DNA of 61,857 bases, filler included, from Candidatus Woesearchaeota archaeon (lineage in GTDB: Archaea; Nanobdellota; Nanobdellia; Woesearchaeales; CAZJJJ01): assembly GCA_046538795.1 (NCBI GenBank). It is 7 parts of 7 records of this genome, joined end to end, with 100 filler letters (N's around TTAATTAATTAA, not from the genome) between each part and the next. Parts side by side here need not be neighbours in the genome. Positions count along the whole stretch, not along the records: positions 37,901 to 45,839 come from JBKHIF010000057.1; positions 45,940 to 53,861 come from JBKHIF010000058.1; 5 more parts are not named here. One strand, given 5' to 3'. Shown here piece by piece: positions 42,001 through 48,000 of this stretch (position 1 is its first letter; each line of letters opens with the position of its first letter). Made by a program: the position numbers.

Positions 42001-45000
42001 GGAAAAGATTATATCGCCGAATTTAATCGTGATGGAATTAAGCTTAATATTGTTCCTGTTACTGAGTTTATAAATAAGACTGTTTTTGATACAAGAGGAA
42101 ATAAAATAGGTTCTGTGAAGGAATTGAATAAGGCTGGTCCCACAAATCAGATAAATTCACTTATAGTTAATAGAGGTCTTTCCAGAGAAGATGTTGAAAT
42201 TAATGTGAGCGACATAAGAGAGATCGGAAAGAACGTCCATCTTAATATAGCTATAGATGGCACATAATAATATTGAAACTATTATGCTGCCAATGACTGA
42301 ATTGTCTAGGATTATTTTGCTTTCTAAAAAATGGAACTTAAAGGGGAGTTATGCTCTTTGCAGACCCGAAATAGCTACGCAATTTGGGTGCTGAATTTGA
42401 ACAAATTTGTTGCATGTTCAAAGCCCGGCGGACATGAGTGAAACGAATGCTCCGTCCGGGATTATTTTGCTTTCGTAGAAAGGAAAATTCAAGGATAACT
42501 TGTTATCCGCCGATGTTCAAAGCCCGGCGGACATGAGTGAAACGAATGCTCCGTCCGGGATTATTTTGCTTTCGTAGAAAGGAAAATTCAAGGATAACTT
42601 GTTATCCGCCGATGTTCAAAGCCCGGCGGACATGAGTGAAACGAATGCTCCGTCCGGGATTTGAACCCGAGTCTTTGCCTCGAGAGGGCAAAATGATTGG
42701 CCGGACTACACTAACGGAGCATAATTATATTCATGTTGTTTTGATTTACTTTAAAAAGATTTCTGATTAGGTTGTGATTTTTTGATAATTGATTAACTAT
42801 ATAGTAAAGTATATAAGTGTCTTTTTTGAAAATAAATATCATGATCATACTTTTTGCCATACTTTTGTTGATTGTAGGGATGATACTTATCTGGGTCGGT
42901 TCAGACTGGATGACTGATTCACTTATTCCTGTTGCAAAATTTCTTGGTACAAGCTATGTGGCTGTTGCATCAATCCTTGTTTCTATAATGCTTTCCATAC
43001 CTGAGATATTTACGTCAGTATATTCATATTACATGGGTTATCTTGACATATCGTTGGGAGTTATAATAGGATCTATTATGTGTAACATTGGACTTATGAC
43101 AGGGCTTTCTGCCATAATAAAACCATTGCATGTGGATAAAGAGATGGTTGTTCGTGATGGTTTTTTTGCATTGGTTGTATGTGCGATAATTTTTGTTTTT
43201 GGAATTGACTTAACTTATGAAAGTTCTGAAGGAATTGTACTTCTTCTTTTGTTTTTGCCTTATGCTATGAATGTCTGGTTTGCTGAAAAATGGAGAAACC
43301 CAGAAGAACAGAAAAAAAGACTGAAAGAGCTTGAGATTGATCTGGAAGAGATTGGTATGGGTCCTGTAAGGCTAAAACCCGGCATGATAACATTTTTGTT
43401 TGGAACAACAGTTCTTTTAGGAGGATCGTACTTGTTTTCAAAATCTCTTACTATGATTGCAAGCCAGACTACAATACCTGACATGATAATCGGACTTACA
43501 TTAGGAGCAATAGGTCCTTCGGTACCAAATATAATCTCGGCAGTACAGGGAACACTAAAAAATTACAAGACAATTGCGATAGCAGAAACATTTGGTTCAA
43601 ACATATTTACAATGCTTGTCACATTAGGTATCCTGATCACTCTTAGCCCTGTAAAAATAACTCCAAGAATATTATTTTTTGACATAACCTGGATGGGAAT
43701 CATGCACCTTCTTATGATTTCTTTTATCATAAAAGGATTCCTTGCAAAAGAAAGTCCGATAATACGAGTTGAGGGAATAAGCCTTATTCTGTTTTATGTT
43801 GTACTGCTTTTAGTTAATGTATTTTTGTGAAATAACCATAGAACTTGTCCCACTAAAACGTCATTGTACCTTGATTTTAATAGTAACTTCAAAAAGTGGA
43901 GCAATTACTCCAAAAACAGAAGTTAGAGGATTTATCGAAAATAGCATCATTTTGAATAGATCTTATCTCCAAAACACAAAATTTTTATCTGCATATTTTG
44001 GATATATCTTTGTAGCGTCATCAGATTCTATTTGGCTTAGTTCTGACTCCCTGAACTTTGCATCAAAAGTTTTTTTAAAACCATCGACTATAGCTTTCCA
44101 CACATCTTCCTTAGTGATACTTTTATAATCTAACAATCCTGTTACAAGATCATTTACAGTCTTCACTTTTTTTTCAAGGAGTTTCTTATCATCTATTTTC
44201 AGATATTTAAACATTTTTTCAACTTCAGGCTTAAGAAGTATTGTTCCATGATGAAGCAATACATTATCGATTCTTGTCTGTGCATTTCCAGATATTTTCT
44301 TTCCATCTAACAAGATATCATTTATAGGTTTGAATTCTGTTTTAAAACCAATTTTTTCTAATCCTTTGATTATTGCACCACATAATAAGTCGTATGAGGC
44401 TTCAACATCTTTTGGTATTTTTTGATCATCTTCTCGTATGATGAAGCTGTAATTTAACTCGAACTTTGGAGATTTATACACTGCTCCGCCTCCTGTTATT
44501 CTCCTAAATATTTCTATTCCATCTTCGTTACAGACTTTGATATCAAGTTCTTTACTTGTTTCTTGGAAATAACCAAGAGCGACAGCAGGTTTATTCCATG
44601 CATAAAAACGAAGAGTAGGAGGACTTATTCCTATTCTTACAGAATTCATGATGGCTTCTTCTACCGCCATCTTCATGAAAGAATCTTGTTCCTTTTCTAA
44701 AGGGATTACTCTCCATTCATCCATCTGAAAATTCCTCTAGAGCTTCTTTGACATAATTCATATATACAAGTGAAGGACCTCCACCCATAAGGACTGCAAC
44801 CCATGCTATCTCTAAGATTTCTTCTTTTGAGAATCCTTTCTCTAATGCTTTTTTAGTATGAAATGCAATGCATCCTTTACATTGAGCTTTAATTGCAATC
44901 CCTAAAGCGACAGCTTCCTTGATTTTTGATGAGACTTTACCATCCTTTTCTACTGCTTCCATAAAAGAGGCAAAAGTTTTTGTTTGTTCCAATGAATTTT

Positions 45001-48000
45001 TTCCAAGATAACTGAATAATTCATCAATCTTTTGTACTTCTTCTTTTTGATTCATCTTTGTTCTCCTCCCTTTATTGTTTTATCAAGCCAATCAATTATC
45101 TCATCGGGTTTGAAAAGTTTTTCAAGCGCTTTTTTATCATCAATCTCCATTTTCAAAATCCAAGACTCATAAGGTTTTTCATTGATCTTGTTTGGTTCAT
45201 CATAAAGAGATTCATTTGTTTCTATTATCTTGCCTGTTAATGGTGACGTAAGATGCCCTGACCACTTGAGTGTTTCAAGAGATACATATACTTCTCCTGC
45301 TTTGATCGTTTTTTGTTCTGGAAGTTTTATAAATAAAAATTCCTTAAGCACTTTTGCTATAGGTTCAATCACCCCTATTGCTGCGATATCACCTTCAATT
45401 TTTATCCAGCTTGAATCTTTATTATATAATAAATTATCAGGCAGTTCAGAATCATTATATTTCATTGTTTTCCCCTCCCTTTTTTAGTTTTTTTCTTACT
45501 AGCAATATGATTCCTGTTACAAGCAATGCTGAAAATATTGTTCCAACTGCAGCAAATATGTTATTTAAAAGTCCAGGTGCAAATACCAGCATACTTCCTA
45601 ATGCTAACATCATCATTCCTGAAAGTAGCTTTAGTGCTTCTCCTTGTGATTGCGATAATTTTTTTGCTCCAAAAGTATAAGTGAATATTAGCACTATCGT
45701 AAGTAATGGAATTATGTATACTATATTGTAAAACAGCAAATAGGAGTAATAGCTTACGGTATTTAACTCATTTAATACAAGTACTTTCGTAAACACCATA
45801 GGAAATCCTGCAGTACATAATAGTTCATACATATTTGCANNNNNNNNNNNNNNNNNNNNNNNNNNNNNNNNNNNNNNNNNNNNTTAATTAATTAANNNNN
45901 NNNNNNNNNNNNNNNNNNNNNNNNNNNNNNNNNNNNNNNAAAAACTTCTGAAAGTACTTTTGCAAGAACAACAATAAGTATTAGTGCAAGAAGAAAATTC
46001 ATTGGATAAGTTCCTCCTTGTATTTTTTTATAAAATCAATTATGTTTTTCTGGAAAACAACACCAAGAAACTTGTTTGTTTCCTTGTCAACTACAGGAAG
46101 GCATCTAACATCGTGCTTCCACATGAGATATGCTGCATCTTCCAAAGTATTTGTCTTTTCAACTGTAAGCTCATGCATATTCATTATGTCTCCAACACGA
46201 GCGCCAAAGATTGTCTGTATCCTTGTACCTAAAGCTCCTATAATATCGTGTTCACTTAACCTTTCAGTGCTTATCGCAAAAGGCATCATCTGATTCTCTG
46301 TTATCTCTCCGATCAGTTTTCCTTTTGAATTCACTACAGGAAAGGCTTCAACATCATACTTATGAAAAAGTCCAAGAATCTCTTTTATCTCAGTACCCTT
46401 ATGAACAAACCTGAATGATTTTTTCATGATCTTTGATACAGGTATTTTCTTTGTATCAGGAAGATTTTGTTTATTCTTTTTAGGCATGAATGTATTTTTG
46501 AAAATAAAGAATATAAAACTTTCCCAAATATCACCTAAAAGGATTAGTTTTATAAACAATCACCAACTTCTTCGAATTATGGATTACGAAAAGCTTCTTG
46601 AAAGAGGACGTGAAAAGCTTCCTGAAAAGGAATCTCTTAGTGAAAGATTCAATATTCCAAAAGCTAAAGGACACATACAGGGAACAAAGACAGTCATTTC
46701 AAATTTCCAGCAGATCGCACAGATACTTGGAAGAGATGCAAATCACATCCTTAAATTTGTCCTAAGAGAGCTTGCAACTCCCGGAGATATGAGAGGACAG
46801 CTTGTGATCTTCGGAAGAAAAGTTTCTGCGTCTGCTGTAAATAACGCAATCGCAAAATATGCTGAGACATTTGTAATGTGCAAAGAATGCGGCAAGCCTG
46901 ATACAAAGGTAGTAAAGAAGTCAGGAATACCATATCTTAAATGCATGGCATGCGGTGCACAAAACGTGATTCGATCAAAGATTAAATAAGTTATATAGTT
47001 CTTACTATTCTTTTTTCTATTGAAGGTATTTTACAAATTTTAAGAAAAATAGGAAAAAGAAGTTCTCTTCTTATTTTTGTCTCGATCAAAAAATGTGCAC
47101 TCTTATGTGTTTTTTTTATTCTTATCCAATTTTCAAAGGTTTTTCTTAAAGCAGAATAATTACATTTTCCAATAATAGAACCTGTGCCAACCTATGTAAA
47201 GTCCTTATTAGGCAAAATCCAAATATATGCCAAATTATTTGAATATAATTCTTAATATTTTACTTCATATTTTATCATATATTAAGTGATTCTTCTGCTT
47301 CTTTGGGATGCATACCTAGCGTTATGAAAAGACTTTTCAGATCATCAGGTGAACGCATCTCATAAGGATCTTTTGCAAAACTTGCGATTAATGCCTTGAA
47401 CTTGAATTTTCTCATGAACCTTATGTTCTGGGATATTCTTCCAAATATAAAGTCCCTGCTGTTTGTATGAAGTATAAGGCTGAAAGAAAACCCTAAAACT
47501 ATATTGTTCTCTTTCATGAATCTTGCTGTGACATGATTCAGACCAGAATTCCTGTGATGGATAAAATCCTTTTTCTGGTACTCGAGATTATATATCATGA
47601 AAGGGTTCTGCTTTTCTATCAGATTTCTTATCTTATCATCATCATGTTCTTTGGAATCAATAAAGATTTTTTTGGTAATTTTTCTTGCTTTCTGGTAATC
47701 TTTTGAAGCTACGATGATTGCAGGAGATATTTCAAGTTCTGTCTTTTTTGAAAGCATCTCAAGATTTTTCTTTATATCTTCAAATTTCATATTCTTTTCA
47801 TATCTGTATAGAAATATCAGTTCTTTATAACCCAATTTTTCAGCGATGGTTATGAATTTTTGTTCATTTTCTTTTGGAATAACTATGTCTGTTCTCATTT
47901 TTTTGCCATACCATATCTAACAAGCATAGAGCATGCATTGCATATTTCTTTTTTTGATGGATATCCGCACATATCACAGTATCTTATGCTTCCCTGATTT

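Follow-up and report, generated by a model that had tools for sequence, protein, structure and literature searches.

The window, that is, the whole 61,857-nt stretch of DNA analysed, consists of several contigs of one woesearchaeal genome chained with N spacers. Three minus-strand open reading frames in it, encoding a putative lipoate-protein ligase, an AhpD-like protein of the CMD family and a GcvH-type lipoyl carrier, lie exactly where an earlier survey had placed them, with the overlaps that it described (8 nt between the ligase and CMD genes, 4 nt between the CMD gene and gcvH; Table 1). A fourth gene, hereafter Memb, overlaps gcvH by 11 nt and is thus part of the same operon; it is cut by the end of its contig (C40), the last 55 nt of which are identical to the first bases of a further contig (C67) carrying the remainder of the gene. 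A gene for a membrane-anchored HTH regulator lies just upstream of Memb, giving the order HTH membrane regulator, Memb, GcvH, AhpD-like protein, LplA. A terminator-like hairpin beyond the ligase gene may mark the end of the operon, the consensus scan that located it having returned 2 where 0.8 were expected.

Table 1. Features of the operon, in window positions except where a contig is named.
Feature	Position	Strand	Remarks
Lipoate-protein ligase gene (putative)	43963-44724	minus	253 aa
CMD-family AhpD-like gene	44717-45055	minus	112 aa
GcvH gene	45052-45465	minus	137 aa
Memb gene, 3' part	45455-45839	minus	C-terminal 127 aa; cut by contig end
Memb gene, 5' part	C67:1-975	minus	N-terminal 325 aa; outside the window
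Terminator-like hairpin and T run	43897-43912	minus	~50 nt past ligase stop; consensus scan

The Pfam assignments of the three complete genes all held above their cut-offs, namely LplA-B_cat for the ligase (170.9 bits), CMD for the AhpD-like protein (57.1 bits) and GCV_H for the carrier (89.9 bits). The survey's finding had labelled the ligase a LipM octanoyltransferase, which is unsupported: its best NCBIfam models, both under their cut-offs, are those of lipoate-protein ligase (TIGR00545, 163 bits) and of the LplA large subunit (155 bits), the latter covering it over its whole length. It is an LplA-type catalytic (large) subunit and has a G-K-K-I-S-G motif. The small subunit LplB was not found in this genome; in relatives it directly follows LplA (76 bits; cut-off 65). 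The CMD protein, predicted to be cytoplasmic, also exceeds the cut-off of the ahpD_dom model (TIGR00778, 38.4 bits), and of the solved chains a 121-aa 'alkyl hydroperoxide reductase AhpD' comes nearest to it (E 1.4e-34). The single CxxC plus His noted by the survey was seen again, as C-K-G-C-I-A-F-H (C59-x-x-C62-x-x-x-H66); these are its only two cysteines, and all three residues are invariant in 25/25 aligned relatives. GcvH, which contains no cysteine, falls under the cut-off of the NCBIfam gcvH equivalog (79.4 against 115.85 bits), and its L-E-T-L-K-W-S-G-H motif bears out the reported lipoyl-lysine: the E-T-L-K lysine (Lys67) aligns with the lipoyl-lysine of solved H proteins and is kept in 86/86 aligned rows.

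Memb comprises a signal peptide, a secreted thioredoxin-like (Trx) domain with a CPHC motif, and a CcdA/DsbD-like membrane domain with two cysteines, the first in a D-G-F-N-P-C helix on the C67-encoded part and the second in an E-L-L-C-T-A-G-F-P motif within the last helices, on the part in the window, which is 85% identical to a full-length 419-aa protein of a relative. In alignments of archaeal and bacterial sequences (22 full-length, 81 of the membrane domain), CPHC, D-G/S-F-N-P-C and E-L-x-C-T/S were invariant or nearly so. Pfam DsbD_TM did not match Memb; profile comparison with 13 DsbD_TM proteins by hhalign gave 94% probability (E 1.4e-7, 199 columns) and aligned both membrane cysteines with those of CcdA. 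ESM Atlas neighbours belonged to the SfLAP, DsbD_TM and DsbD_2 families, which with the profile comparison points to a distant relationship with CcdA/DsbD. The AF2 model of the membrane domain reached a pLDDT of 90.6; in a fold search CcdA (5vkv) ranked only 16th (Z 7.0, rmsd 4.7, 197/224 residues aligned). Among solved structures the Trx domain is matched best by the small archaeal thioredoxin 1fo5, of similar fold, and there are weak Pfam matches to DSBA. Elsewhere in this genome, a Memb paralogue has as gene neighbours secreted, Cys-rich proteins that carry GILT and DsbA-like domains.

The genome is 97.57% complete in 97 contigs, and HMM searches over its six-frame translation (E<=0.01) returned no GCV_T, GDC-P, Biotin_lipoyl, 2-oxoacid_dh or Pyr_redox_dim, and no match to lipA (TIGR00510) or Lip_prot_lig_C (PF10437). 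The T, P and L proteins, an E2, a second lipoyl domain and LipA are all absent, as the survey had stated. Its placement of GcvH outside the glycine cleavage system extends to the 22 cluster-bearing relatives, none of which has GCV_T, and in which lipoylation genes travel along; 19 of them have a Biotin_lipoyl match, which in all but one (G250) is the cluster GcvH itself. By gene content, the orphan status of this GcvH is general.

To place the operon in a wider context, 401 genomes of the same order were sampled, 98 of which contain GcvH and 49 a CMD homologue. Among 96 GcvH loci from 92 genomes, gcvH directly follows Memb in 57, an order kept across many families of the order, and GcvT in 22. 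The survey had correctly described the fourth gene as a contig-cut polytopic membrane protein but set it aside, whereas no other gene accompanies this type of GcvH as constantly as Memb does. In a quick tree, a branch with an SH-aLRT of 92 separated all 48 Memb-linked GcvH rows from all 22 GcvT-linked ones; the lipoyl-lysine is followed by W in 46/48 of the former and by S in 21/22 of the latter, suggesting that the Memb-linked proteins form a separate subfamily, to which the present GcvH belongs. Within 8 kb, HMM searches of 55 Memb-GcvH genomes found an FAD reductase in 37, LplA in 38, LplB in 27, LipA in 25 and the HTH regulator in 36. This flavoprotein is CoADR/Nox-like (TIGR03385, 338 bits) with solved relatives, and its redox cysteine is present in 12/14 sequences, one relative's being named as lacking it; another relative has a true dihydrolipoyl dehydrogenase (544 bits) in its place, and it was not found in the present genome. 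The fourth gene of Memb-linked loci is alternatively AhpD-like (19 loci) or a secreted thioredoxin lipoprotein (21 loci), a paralogue of the Memb Trx domain whose lipoprotein signal supports an outside location for that domain. The wider Memb family mostly lacks GcvH (present at 6 of the best 80 loci elsewhere), and the bacterial homologues have none. No description of the Memb-GcvH pairing was found in the literature searched.

Based on gene content and order, the conserved residues, the distant CcdA/DsbD homology and the lack of any further enzyme that depends on lipoate, the operon may encode a transmembrane thiol relay built on a lipoyl protein, running from NAD(P)H through a flavoprotein, lipoyl-GcvH, in some cases the AhpD-like protein, and Memb to a surface thioredoxin; we give this reading a probability of about 0.5. 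The electron-transfer steps, the direction of flow and the clients, all of which we infer, would be as follows. LplA would place lipoate or octanoate on Lys67 of GcvH, helped in relatives by LplB and LipA, and lipoyl-GcvH would receive electrons on the cytoplasmic side. The donor in most relatives would be the CoADR-like NAD(P)H flavoprotein of the cluster; since that gene is missing here, one of two TrxR-like enzymes or another reductase would have to act. Dihydrolipoyl-GcvH, directly or via the AhpD-like CxxC protein, would then reduce the pair of cysteines that the CcdA-like domain holds within the membrane, and these the CPHC domain at the cell surface, which would serve surface clients; the candidates are a membrane-anchored peroxiredoxin and the only MsrAB of this genome, a lipoprotein. 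As a side branch, the AhpD-like protein may pass electrons to cytoplasmic peroxides. Counting against the relay, the missing flavoprotein, LipA and LplB leave the reduction, and even the lipoylation, of GcvH unaccounted for here. Most of the wider Memb family does without GcvH, and the ordinary thioredoxin route to Memb is a competing option in this genome. Moreover, peroxiredoxin or Msr genes lie near Memb at only 1/112 and 2/80 loci, and MsrA occurs in 12/55 Memb-GcvH genomes against 123/346 others, so the proposed clients are not general. If true, the relay would be a new role for protein-bound lipoate, supplying reducing power to the cell surface.

The survey itself had proposed a peroxide defence confined to the cytoplasm: lipoyl-GcvH would reduce the AhpD-like protein, and this in turn AhpC. 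On this reading Memb would be a co-transcribed neighbour only. The mycobacterial precedent (excerpted in PMC12440151 and PMC8945050), the invariant AhpD core and the closest solved chain all speak for it, and its central link does recur: the AhpD-like gene follows gcvH in 22 of the 96 loci, adjoins the true dihydrolipoyl dehydrogenase in one relative, and in another has homologues flanking an E1-E2 2-oxoacid dehydrogenase with lipoylation genes. Both AhpC peroxiredoxins that it invokes were confirmed above the AhpC-TSA cut-off; however, the cytoplasmic one is followed by its own TrxR-like reductase gene, the other carries a membrane anchor at its N-terminus and is probably extracellular, where a cytoplasmic AhpD could not reach it, and no AhpC was found near GcvH/Memb loci apart from one weak match in 112. 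The AhpD-like gene, missing from 38/57 Memb-linked loci, is dispensable and cannot explain the existence of the Memb-linked GcvH, and why gcvH is bound so closely to Memb by translational coupling is left unexplained; this reading is partly supported but unlikely. An equally doubtful reading has thioredoxin and its reductase feeding Memb, an ordinary route for which this genome has a single canonical thioredoxin and two genes of TrxR type (one of them ~4 kb upstream once the contigs are joined) and which is favoured by the GcvH-free bacterial homologues. GcvH and its ligase would then serve another role, as an LbpA-like sulfur or persulfide carrier, a lipoyl/octanoyl relay, a store for scavenged lipoate or the cofactor of an unrecognised enzyme; GcvH-like proteins outside glycine cleavage are known in LbpA (PMC6067878, in part) and GcvH-L (PMC12440151, in part). 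Yet most LbpA proteins, in the excerpted text of PMC6067878, keep two conserved cysteines that this GcvH lacks, a lipoyl relay would have no second lipoyl domain as acceptor (LipL-type models reached only ~18 bits), the operon has no sirtuin or macrodomain gene, and the Memb-GcvH order persists in many families.

CPHC is also the active-site motif of the oxidant DsbA, so that either direction of electron flow is conceivable. Under reverse flow the parts would form disulfides in the secreted proteins of a cell that has no quinones: exported substrates would be oxidised by the CPHC domain at the surface, and the membrane cysteines would relay the electrons inward to oxidised lipoyl-GcvH, from which either the flavoprotein would deliver them to NAD+ or the AhpD-like protein to peroxide. 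The weak DSBA matches and the Cys-rich secreted proteins encoded beside the Memb paralogue fit this, as does the normal reaction of Lpd-type enzymes, which is the oxidation of dihydrolipoamide. However, flow from protein dithiols through lipoamide to NAD+ is uphill by standard potentials, all CcdA/DsbD relays characterised to our knowledge carry electrons outward, the surface peroxiredoxin and MsrAB here need a reductant, and the Trx domain matches an archaeal thioredoxin best; disulfide formation is accordingly rated the least probable of these explanations.

The proposed outward relay shares elements with several known systems. In archaeal bipartite lipoate-protein ligases (NCBIfam models NF053750 and NF053749), LplA depends on LplB; the ligase here matches the large subunit and relatives have LplB directly after it, but this genome lacks LplB. 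The mycobacterial Lpd-DlaT-AhpD-AhpC chain was reportedly described by Bryk et al. in 2002. Like this NADH-Lpd-lipoyl-DlaT(SucB)-AhpD-AhpC peroxidase (excerpts of PMC12440151 and PMC8945050), the relay would use protein-bound lipoate as the reductant of an AhpD-type CxxC protein, and relatives encode a flavoprotein disulfide reductase that would act ahead of the carrier. Here, however, the carrier is a stand-alone GcvH instead of an E2 belonging to a functional dehydrogenase, the relatives' flavoprotein is CoADR-like with one cysteine, the AhpD-like protein is one short domain (112 aa), AhpC is unlinked, and the main partner is a membrane relay. MdrA of Methanosarcina acetivorans, mentioned in bioRxiv 10.1101/2024.03.05.583561, is a disulfide reductase and thus an archaeal CMD-family protein that works as a thiol-disulfide oxidoreductase and not as a decarboxylase; the CMD protein of this operon has the two CxxC cysteines only. 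According to partial texts, the LbpA proteins of sHdr sulfur oxidation (PMC6067878) are also GcvH-like carriers outside glycine cleavage with dedicated ligase and maturation genes, whereas the present operon has no hdr-like genes and pairs a cysteine-free GcvH with a Trx-CcdA-like membrane protein; the GcvH-L/LplA2/SirTM/macrodomain operon of Staphylococcus and Streptococcus (PMC4518038, PMC12440151) likewise contains, beside a dedicated ligase, an additional GcvH without a metabolic function that is linked to oxidative-stress resistance, but differs in organisms, partners and presumed mechanism, and in its sirtuin and macrodomain genes.

Among DsbD/CcdA-type reductant relays, such as CcdA-Etrx-MsrAB2 of Streptococcus pneumoniae with its surface thioredoxin-fold partners (PMC3914529, in part), Memb differs in a membrane domain too divergent for Pfam DsbD_TM, an N-terminally fused Trx domain, client genes that are not nearby, and co-encoded partners that are a lipoyl carrier, lipoylation enzymes, a CoADR-like flavoprotein and an AhpD-like protein and not thioredoxin and its reductase. 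It shares with them two conserved cysteines in helices that are homologous by hhalign, an external thioredoxin-fold domain or lipoprotein and, in this genome, MsrAB and a peroxiredoxin as possible surface clients.

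The operon lies on contig C40, one of the seven contigs that, with N spacers between them, compose the window. Three minus-strand open reading frames overlapping by 8 and 4 nt encode the ligase, the AhpD-like CMD-family protein and GcvH, as the survey had described them, and their Pfam families were borne out with scores far over the cut-offs (see table). The CMD protein has two cysteines in all, both within C-K-G-C-I-A-F-H, and the CxxC-then-His centre attributed to it was invariant at C, C and H in 25 of 25 aligned relatives; besides PF02627, it was placed in the AhpD/CMD family by TIGR00778 (38.4 bits, cut-off 27.8), and its closest solved match was a 121-aa chain deposited as alkyl hydroperoxide reductase AhpD (E 1.4e-34). 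That GcvH is a GCV_H-fold lipoyl carrier follows from the family profile and from a lipoyl-Lys in an E-x-x-K hairpin; in alignments, the lysine of L-E-T-L-K, the expected lipoylation site, coincides with the one lipoylated in solved H proteins, and it was kept in 86 of 86 rows. The label LipM did not hold for the ligase, which scored 163 bits with the TIGR00545 lipoate-protein ligase model and 155 bits with the LplA large-subunit model, and ∼18 bits with LipL/octanoyl-GcvH transferase models; no dedicated LipM model occurred among its 10 NCBIfam matches. The ligase instead belongs with LplA large subunits, matching NF053750 at positions 12-246 of 248 and containing G-K-K-I-S-G. A terminator-like hairpin 3′ of the ligase gene offers weak evidence of an operon end.

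Coordinates of the operon, its neighbours and other thiol-redox loci of this genome (window positions, with contig C40 at 37901-45839, unless a contig or fetched locus is named)
Feature	Positions	Strand	Evidence or remark
LplA-type ligase, 253 aa	43963-44724	-	ORF; LplA-B_cat (PF21948) 170.9 bits
CMD-family AhpD-like protein, 112 aa	44717-45055	-	ORF; PF02627 57.1 bits (cut-off 23)
GcvH, 137 aa	45052-45465	-	ORF; PF01597 89.9 bits (cut-off 22.2)
Memb, fragment upstream of gcvH	45455-45839	-	ORF; cut by contig end; 11-nt overlap with gcvH
Memb, N-terminal part	contig C67, 1-975		tblastn with full-length relatives
Na/Ca-exchanger family gene	42817-43830	+	neighbour on C40
PRC-barrel gene	41794-42267	+	neighbour on C40
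PAC2-family gene	41008-41712	+	neighbour on C40
CBS-domain gene	45999-46559		next contig, no true neighbour of the operon
Fused MsrAB, 424 aa	58075-59349	+	contig C42; sole MsrA/MsrB of the genome; lipoprotein-type N-terminus (charged stretch, hydrophobic stretch, L-S-G-C)
Second thiol-redox cluster	contig C67, L068 1708-5878	-	upstream of the operon, outside the window
Memb paralogue, 442 aa	contig C12, L069 5072-8602	-	C-S-H-C replacing C-P-H-C
Cytoplasmic peroxiredoxin gene set	contig C53, L180 3-1953	-	with TrxR-like and desulfoferrodoxin-like genes
AhpC-type 2-Cys peroxiredoxin, 227 aa	contig C13, L181 1339-2022	-	N-terminal hydrophobic membrane anchor

The orphan status of this GcvH was assessed by HMM searches at E≤0.01 over all six reading frames of the genome (1.34 Mb in 97 contigs; 97.57% complete), with control genomes that matched in every absence search. 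No match was obtained in this genome for GCV_T, GDC-P, Biotin_lipoyl, 2-oxoacid_dh, Pyr_redox_dim, lipoyl synthase or the LplB-type domain, which upholds the reported absence of T, P and L proteins, of 2-oxoacid dehydrogenases and of lipoate synthase. The GcvH itself falls outside the glycine cleavage equivalog, scoring 79.4 with TIGR00527 (gcvH) vs a cut-off of 115.85. GCV_T was likewise found in none of the 22 cluster genomes, and in the 19 of 22 with a Biotin_lipoyl match, that match was the cluster GcvH itself, except in G250. A Bacillus-type role as lipoyl relay to E2 proteins was rejected because the genome has neither an E2 nor a LipL-like match. Membership in LbpA/sHdr was also rejected, the 137-aa protein having no cysteine and its neighbouring genes not being Hdr-like, as was membership in GcvH-L/SirTM.

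The fourth gene, truncated at the edge of C40, encodes a membrane protein (Memb) and is split only by the assembly, since the last 55 nt of C40 are the first 55 nt of C67. Full-length relatives are ∼420-500 aa, that of genome G030 being 85% identical to the window fragment, and begin with a signal peptide, followed by a thioredoxin/glutaredoxin-like domain whose C-P-H-C is invariant and by a polytopic domain in which D-G/S-F-N-P-C (first helix) and E-L-x-C-T/S-x-G-F-P (fourth helix) are invariant. Archaeal and bacterial sequences, 22 of full length and 81 of the membrane domain, share these features, and C31 and C159 are invariant in all 81. Pfam and NCBIfam recognized the thioredoxin-like part only, under cut-offs; DsbD_TM gave no match at E≤0.01 in three full-length Memb proteins, and PF02683 matched an ArsG-like gene alone in this genome and G030. 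In the profile-profile comparison of the Memb membrane domain with 13 CcdA/ArsG-type DsbD_TM proteins of the same order, hhalign returned 94.0% (E 1.4e-7, 199 columns) and placed both Memb cysteines on the two CcdA cysteines, so that by this comparison, and by a conserved cysteine in each of core helices one and four, Memb joins the CcdA/DsbD group; the full-length alignment compared with one ArsG-like sequence alone gave no significant match (0.9%). An HMM search of solved-structure sequences with the membrane domain gave no meaningful match. Its AF2 model (pLDDT 90.6) retrieved mixed helical transporters with VIA-align, CcdA (5vkv) ranking 16 (Z 7.0, rmsd 4.7, 197/224 residues), and nothing with Foldseek at E≤0.001; fold searches with the full-length model recovered thioredoxin-fold matches only, at residues 37-136, and ESM Atlas neighbours (SfLAP, DsbD_TM, DsbD_2) served as leads only. 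On this mixed evidence, hhalign included, Memb is treated as a putative, distant thiol relay of the CcdA/DsbD superfamily fused to a surface thioredoxin-like domain. Complex prediction of the membrane domain with the AhpD-like protein scored 0.00, which says nothing for or against binding. The gene directly upstream of Memb, on C67, encodes a protein of 160 aa that combines an ArsR-like winged helix with a pair of membrane helices flanking a single invariant cysteine.

To place the operon within the order, the surroundings of CMD and GcvH homologues were compared across 401 sampled genomes. A CMD homologue was present in 49 (including the unpublished G132), and the ∼9 kb to either side of 37 such sites (36 published genomes; E≤1.3e-18; weaker sites and G132 left out) were scored with HMMs built from clusters. 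Memb, GcvH and CMD were contiguous at 18 of the 37 loci; a further three, in three genomes, paired Memb with CMD without GcvH, four had GcvH with CMD and no Memb in view (one at a contig edge, two with an inserted gene), two had CMD beside other lipoyl genes, and ten were unrelated contexts. A 420-aa gene between GcvH and CMD in G203 and G261 was considered and set aside as a possible Memb variant; read by eye, its sequence looks soluble and glycoside-hydrolase-like. PF01597 matched 98 of the 401 genomes (four unpublished, not fetched), yielding 96 GcvH loci from 92 genomes, with two weak partial matches missing. Directly upstream of GcvH were Memb (57 loci, 55 genomes), GcvT (22), a flavoprotein (3), other genes (10) or a contig edge (4). 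The Memb-linked GcvH genes were followed by a secreted lipoprotein paralogous to the Memb thioredoxin domain (21 of 57), the AhpD-like CMD gene (19), the flavoprotein (10), LipA (4), or another gene or contig edge (3). The lipoprotein, of ∼150 aa with GCPHC (sometimes GCPFC), occupies the place of the AhpD-like gene (e.g., L194 8908-9348 and L183 8631-9110).

Within 8 kb, the 55 Memb-GcvH genomes had the flavoprotein in 37, LplA in 38, LplB in 27, LipA in 25 and the HTH regulator in 36, all of them minimum counts, as many contigs break off close by. By NCBIfam, the downstream cluster genes encode a CoA-disulfide-reductase/Nox-like flavoprotein (338 bits with TIGR03385, cut-off 578.8), lipoyl synthase (387), LplA and LplB (76 bits, cut-off 65). 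The redox cysteine of the flavoprotein, in an S-x-C-x-x-P-Y region, was present in 12 of 14; the cluster flavoprotein of G091 (L037 7728-9065) is without the CoADR-type cysteine, reading Y-S-Q-F-D-L-P-Y vs Y-S-P-C-A-L-P-Y.

A quick IQ-TREE phylogeny of GcvH (86 rows after 10 below 80 bits were dropped; midpoint root only) contained a branch (SH-aLRT 92) separating 48 of 48 Memb-linked rows and seven others from 22 of 22 GcvT-linked rows and nine others, and the GcvH of this genome fell on the side opposite the GcvT-linked proteins. The residue pair at the lipoyl-Lys differed, K-W in 46 of 48 Memb-linked rows vs K-S in 21 of 22 GcvT-linked rows; GcvT also adjoined GcvH in five of five tested genomes with a high-scoring GcvH. 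By locus counts, tree and residue pair, this is a separate GcvH subfamily, with Memb and not the AhpD-like protein as its constant partner. A short GcvH variant (∼105 aa, HMM 45-69) follows Memb at L056, L058, L065 and L249-L255, and in several loci the genome search flagged stop codons inside a longer HMM match.

The AhpD-like protein was found after GcvH at 22 loci and, being missing from 38 of the 57 Memb-GcvH loci, is optional for the Memb-GcvH unit; it is read as an adaptor or side branch, not as core. Its homologues also occur with other lipoyl systems. In G036 (L045 6617-9650) one lies beside a true dihydrolipoyl dehydrogenase (TIGR01350, 544 bits) with LplA, LplB and LipA, and in G236 (L055 4838-10738) they are found on both sides of LipA-E1alpha-E1beta-E2, with LplA and LplB; both arrangements resemble the mycobacterial one.

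Beyond the order, a scan of one genome per species recovered at least 553 Memb relatives from bacteria (Nitrospirota, Thermodesulfovibrionia, Geobacter-like and Patescibacteria-type MAGs, among others) and archaea, the latter MAGs. Among the best 80 loci, GcvH lay beside Memb in six (L071, L075, L080, L086, L097 and, with the regulator only, L070), all carrying archaeal titles. The bacterial homologues had no conserved neighbours, 427 neighbour genes falling into 354 clusters, and the sole recurrent thiol protein near them was a small thioredoxin-like gene (six loci). Given this spread and the lack of a conserved bacterial neighbour, Memb is a Trx-CcdA-like fusion of wide distribution, so far without a name, to which a lipoyl module was added, among the examined loci, in these small archaea. 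The Memb paralogue on C12 is 25% identical and is flanked by a 138-aa anchored C-G-A-C protein and by a secreted, Cys-rich protein of 578 aa that combines GILT, DsbA-like and thioredoxin-like domains.

The version in this genome reads HTH-Memb-GcvH-CMD-LplA. The cluster flavoprotein, LipA and LplB were absent from the genome in tblastn and HMM searches, and without LipA its lipoate would have to be scavenged. In two-part ligases, the LplA large subunit depends on LplB. A complete LplA/LplB enzyme was not recovered, neither PF10437 nor tblastn with 13 LplB proteins giving a match, and a small LplB gene could lie in an assembly gap. Two TrxR-like enzymes are possible reductants of lipoyl-GcvH, one on C67 ∼4 kb upstream (285 bits) and one beside the cytoplasmic AhpC (310 bits). 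The second thiol-redox cluster, also on C67, encodes a TrxR-like protein, a 224-aa unknown, an MTH895/ArsE-type thioredoxin-like protein, ArsF-family and ArsG-family (DsbD_TM, 287 bits) proteins and an SO_0444/SaoE-like permease.

The two AhpC peroxiredoxins reported by the survey were recovered as two AhpC-TSA proteins. The cytoplasmic one, on C53, adjoins a TrxR-like flavoprotein (TIGR01292, under cut-off) and a desulfoferrodoxin-like gene in an oxidative-stress operon. The one on C13 is probably extracytoplasmic, facing outward because its anchor precedes the Prx domain; the gene after it encodes a membrane protein whose C-terminal end resembles a winged helix. The lipoprotein-like N-terminus of the fused MsrAB suggests a methionine-sulfoxide reductase that is probably at the surface. 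By analogy with pneumococcal CcdA-Etrx-MsrAB2, the anchored peroxiredoxin and MsrAB would need an outside reductant. Both are candidate clients in this genome only; as general clients across the order they were rejected, MsrA occurring in 12 of 55 Memb-GcvH genomes vs 123 of 346 others (a tally of 135 genomes, two of them unpublished) and Prx/Msr genes almost never lying near Memb.

Our boldest reading, to which we assign a probability of roughly 0.45, is that thioredoxin has been replaced as cytoplasmic electron donor of the divergent CcdA-like relay by a GcvH subfamily reserved for this task, which comes with a ligase, a lipoyl synthase and a CoADR-like NAD(P)H reductase of its own. Neither glycine cleavage nor a dehydrogenase would then still depend on its protein-bound lipoate, and the AhpD-like protein would act as a dispensable adaptor or as a branch to peroxide; if so, lipoylation in these small archaea would serve only to power cell-surface thiol chemistry. 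Our preferred reading is the electron path itself, in which we infer every transfer step and to which we give about even odds: electrons would pass from NAD(P)H through the flavoprotein to lipoyl-GcvH, then, with or without the AhpD-like protein in between, to the CcdA-like membrane cysteines, and from these to the surface CPHC domain and surface clients.

The cytoplasmic chain proposed by the survey, in which lipoyl-GcvH would reduce the AhpD-like protein and this in turn AhpC, draws on the recurrence of AhpD-like homologues beside lipoyl systems, which supports protein-bound lipoate as their redox partner. Its AhpC end fared worse: both AhpC genes lie away from the operon, one followed by its own TrxR-like gene and the other anchored and probably outward-facing, and no Pyr_redox_dim protein is present in this genome that would complete a mycobacterial-type Lpd-lipoyl-AhpD-AhpC chain. 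We regard that chain as unlikely; the survey's observation is confirmed, and its interpretation holds in part, with the membrane relay as its new centre. No more probable is that thioredoxin, of which this genome has a single canonical copy, feeds Memb while GcvH has another role, and slightly less probable still is that these components work backwards to form disulfides.

Lipoate is the swinging arm of 2-oxoacid dehydrogenases and glycine cleavage, with mycobacterial AhpD, sHdr-LbpA and GcvH-L as special cases. If a lipoyl carrier does feed a transmembrane thiol relay, lipoate would gain a new role in physiology, and the DsbD/CcdA class a new donor of electrons. This would account for the presence of GcvH, LplA/B and LipA in fermentative archaea of reduced genome that have no lipoate-dependent enzyme, and would show how host-attached cells protect or manage surface cysteines and methionines.

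No description of a GcvH-CcdA/DsbD or GcvH-AhpD operon in archaea was found in the full-text literature searched, which covers few subscription journals. The nearest systems are the DsbD/CcdA relays such as pneumococcal CcdA-Etrx-MsrAB2 (PMC3914529), the mycobacterial Lpd-DlaT-AhpD-AhpC chain (PMC12440151, PMC8945050), GcvH-L (PMC12440151, PMC4518038), the CMD-family reductase MdrA (bioRxiv 10.1101/2024.03.05.583561) and LbpA-sHdr (PMC6067878). Most LbpA proteins have two conserved cysteines near their termini, whereas the GcvH described here has none.
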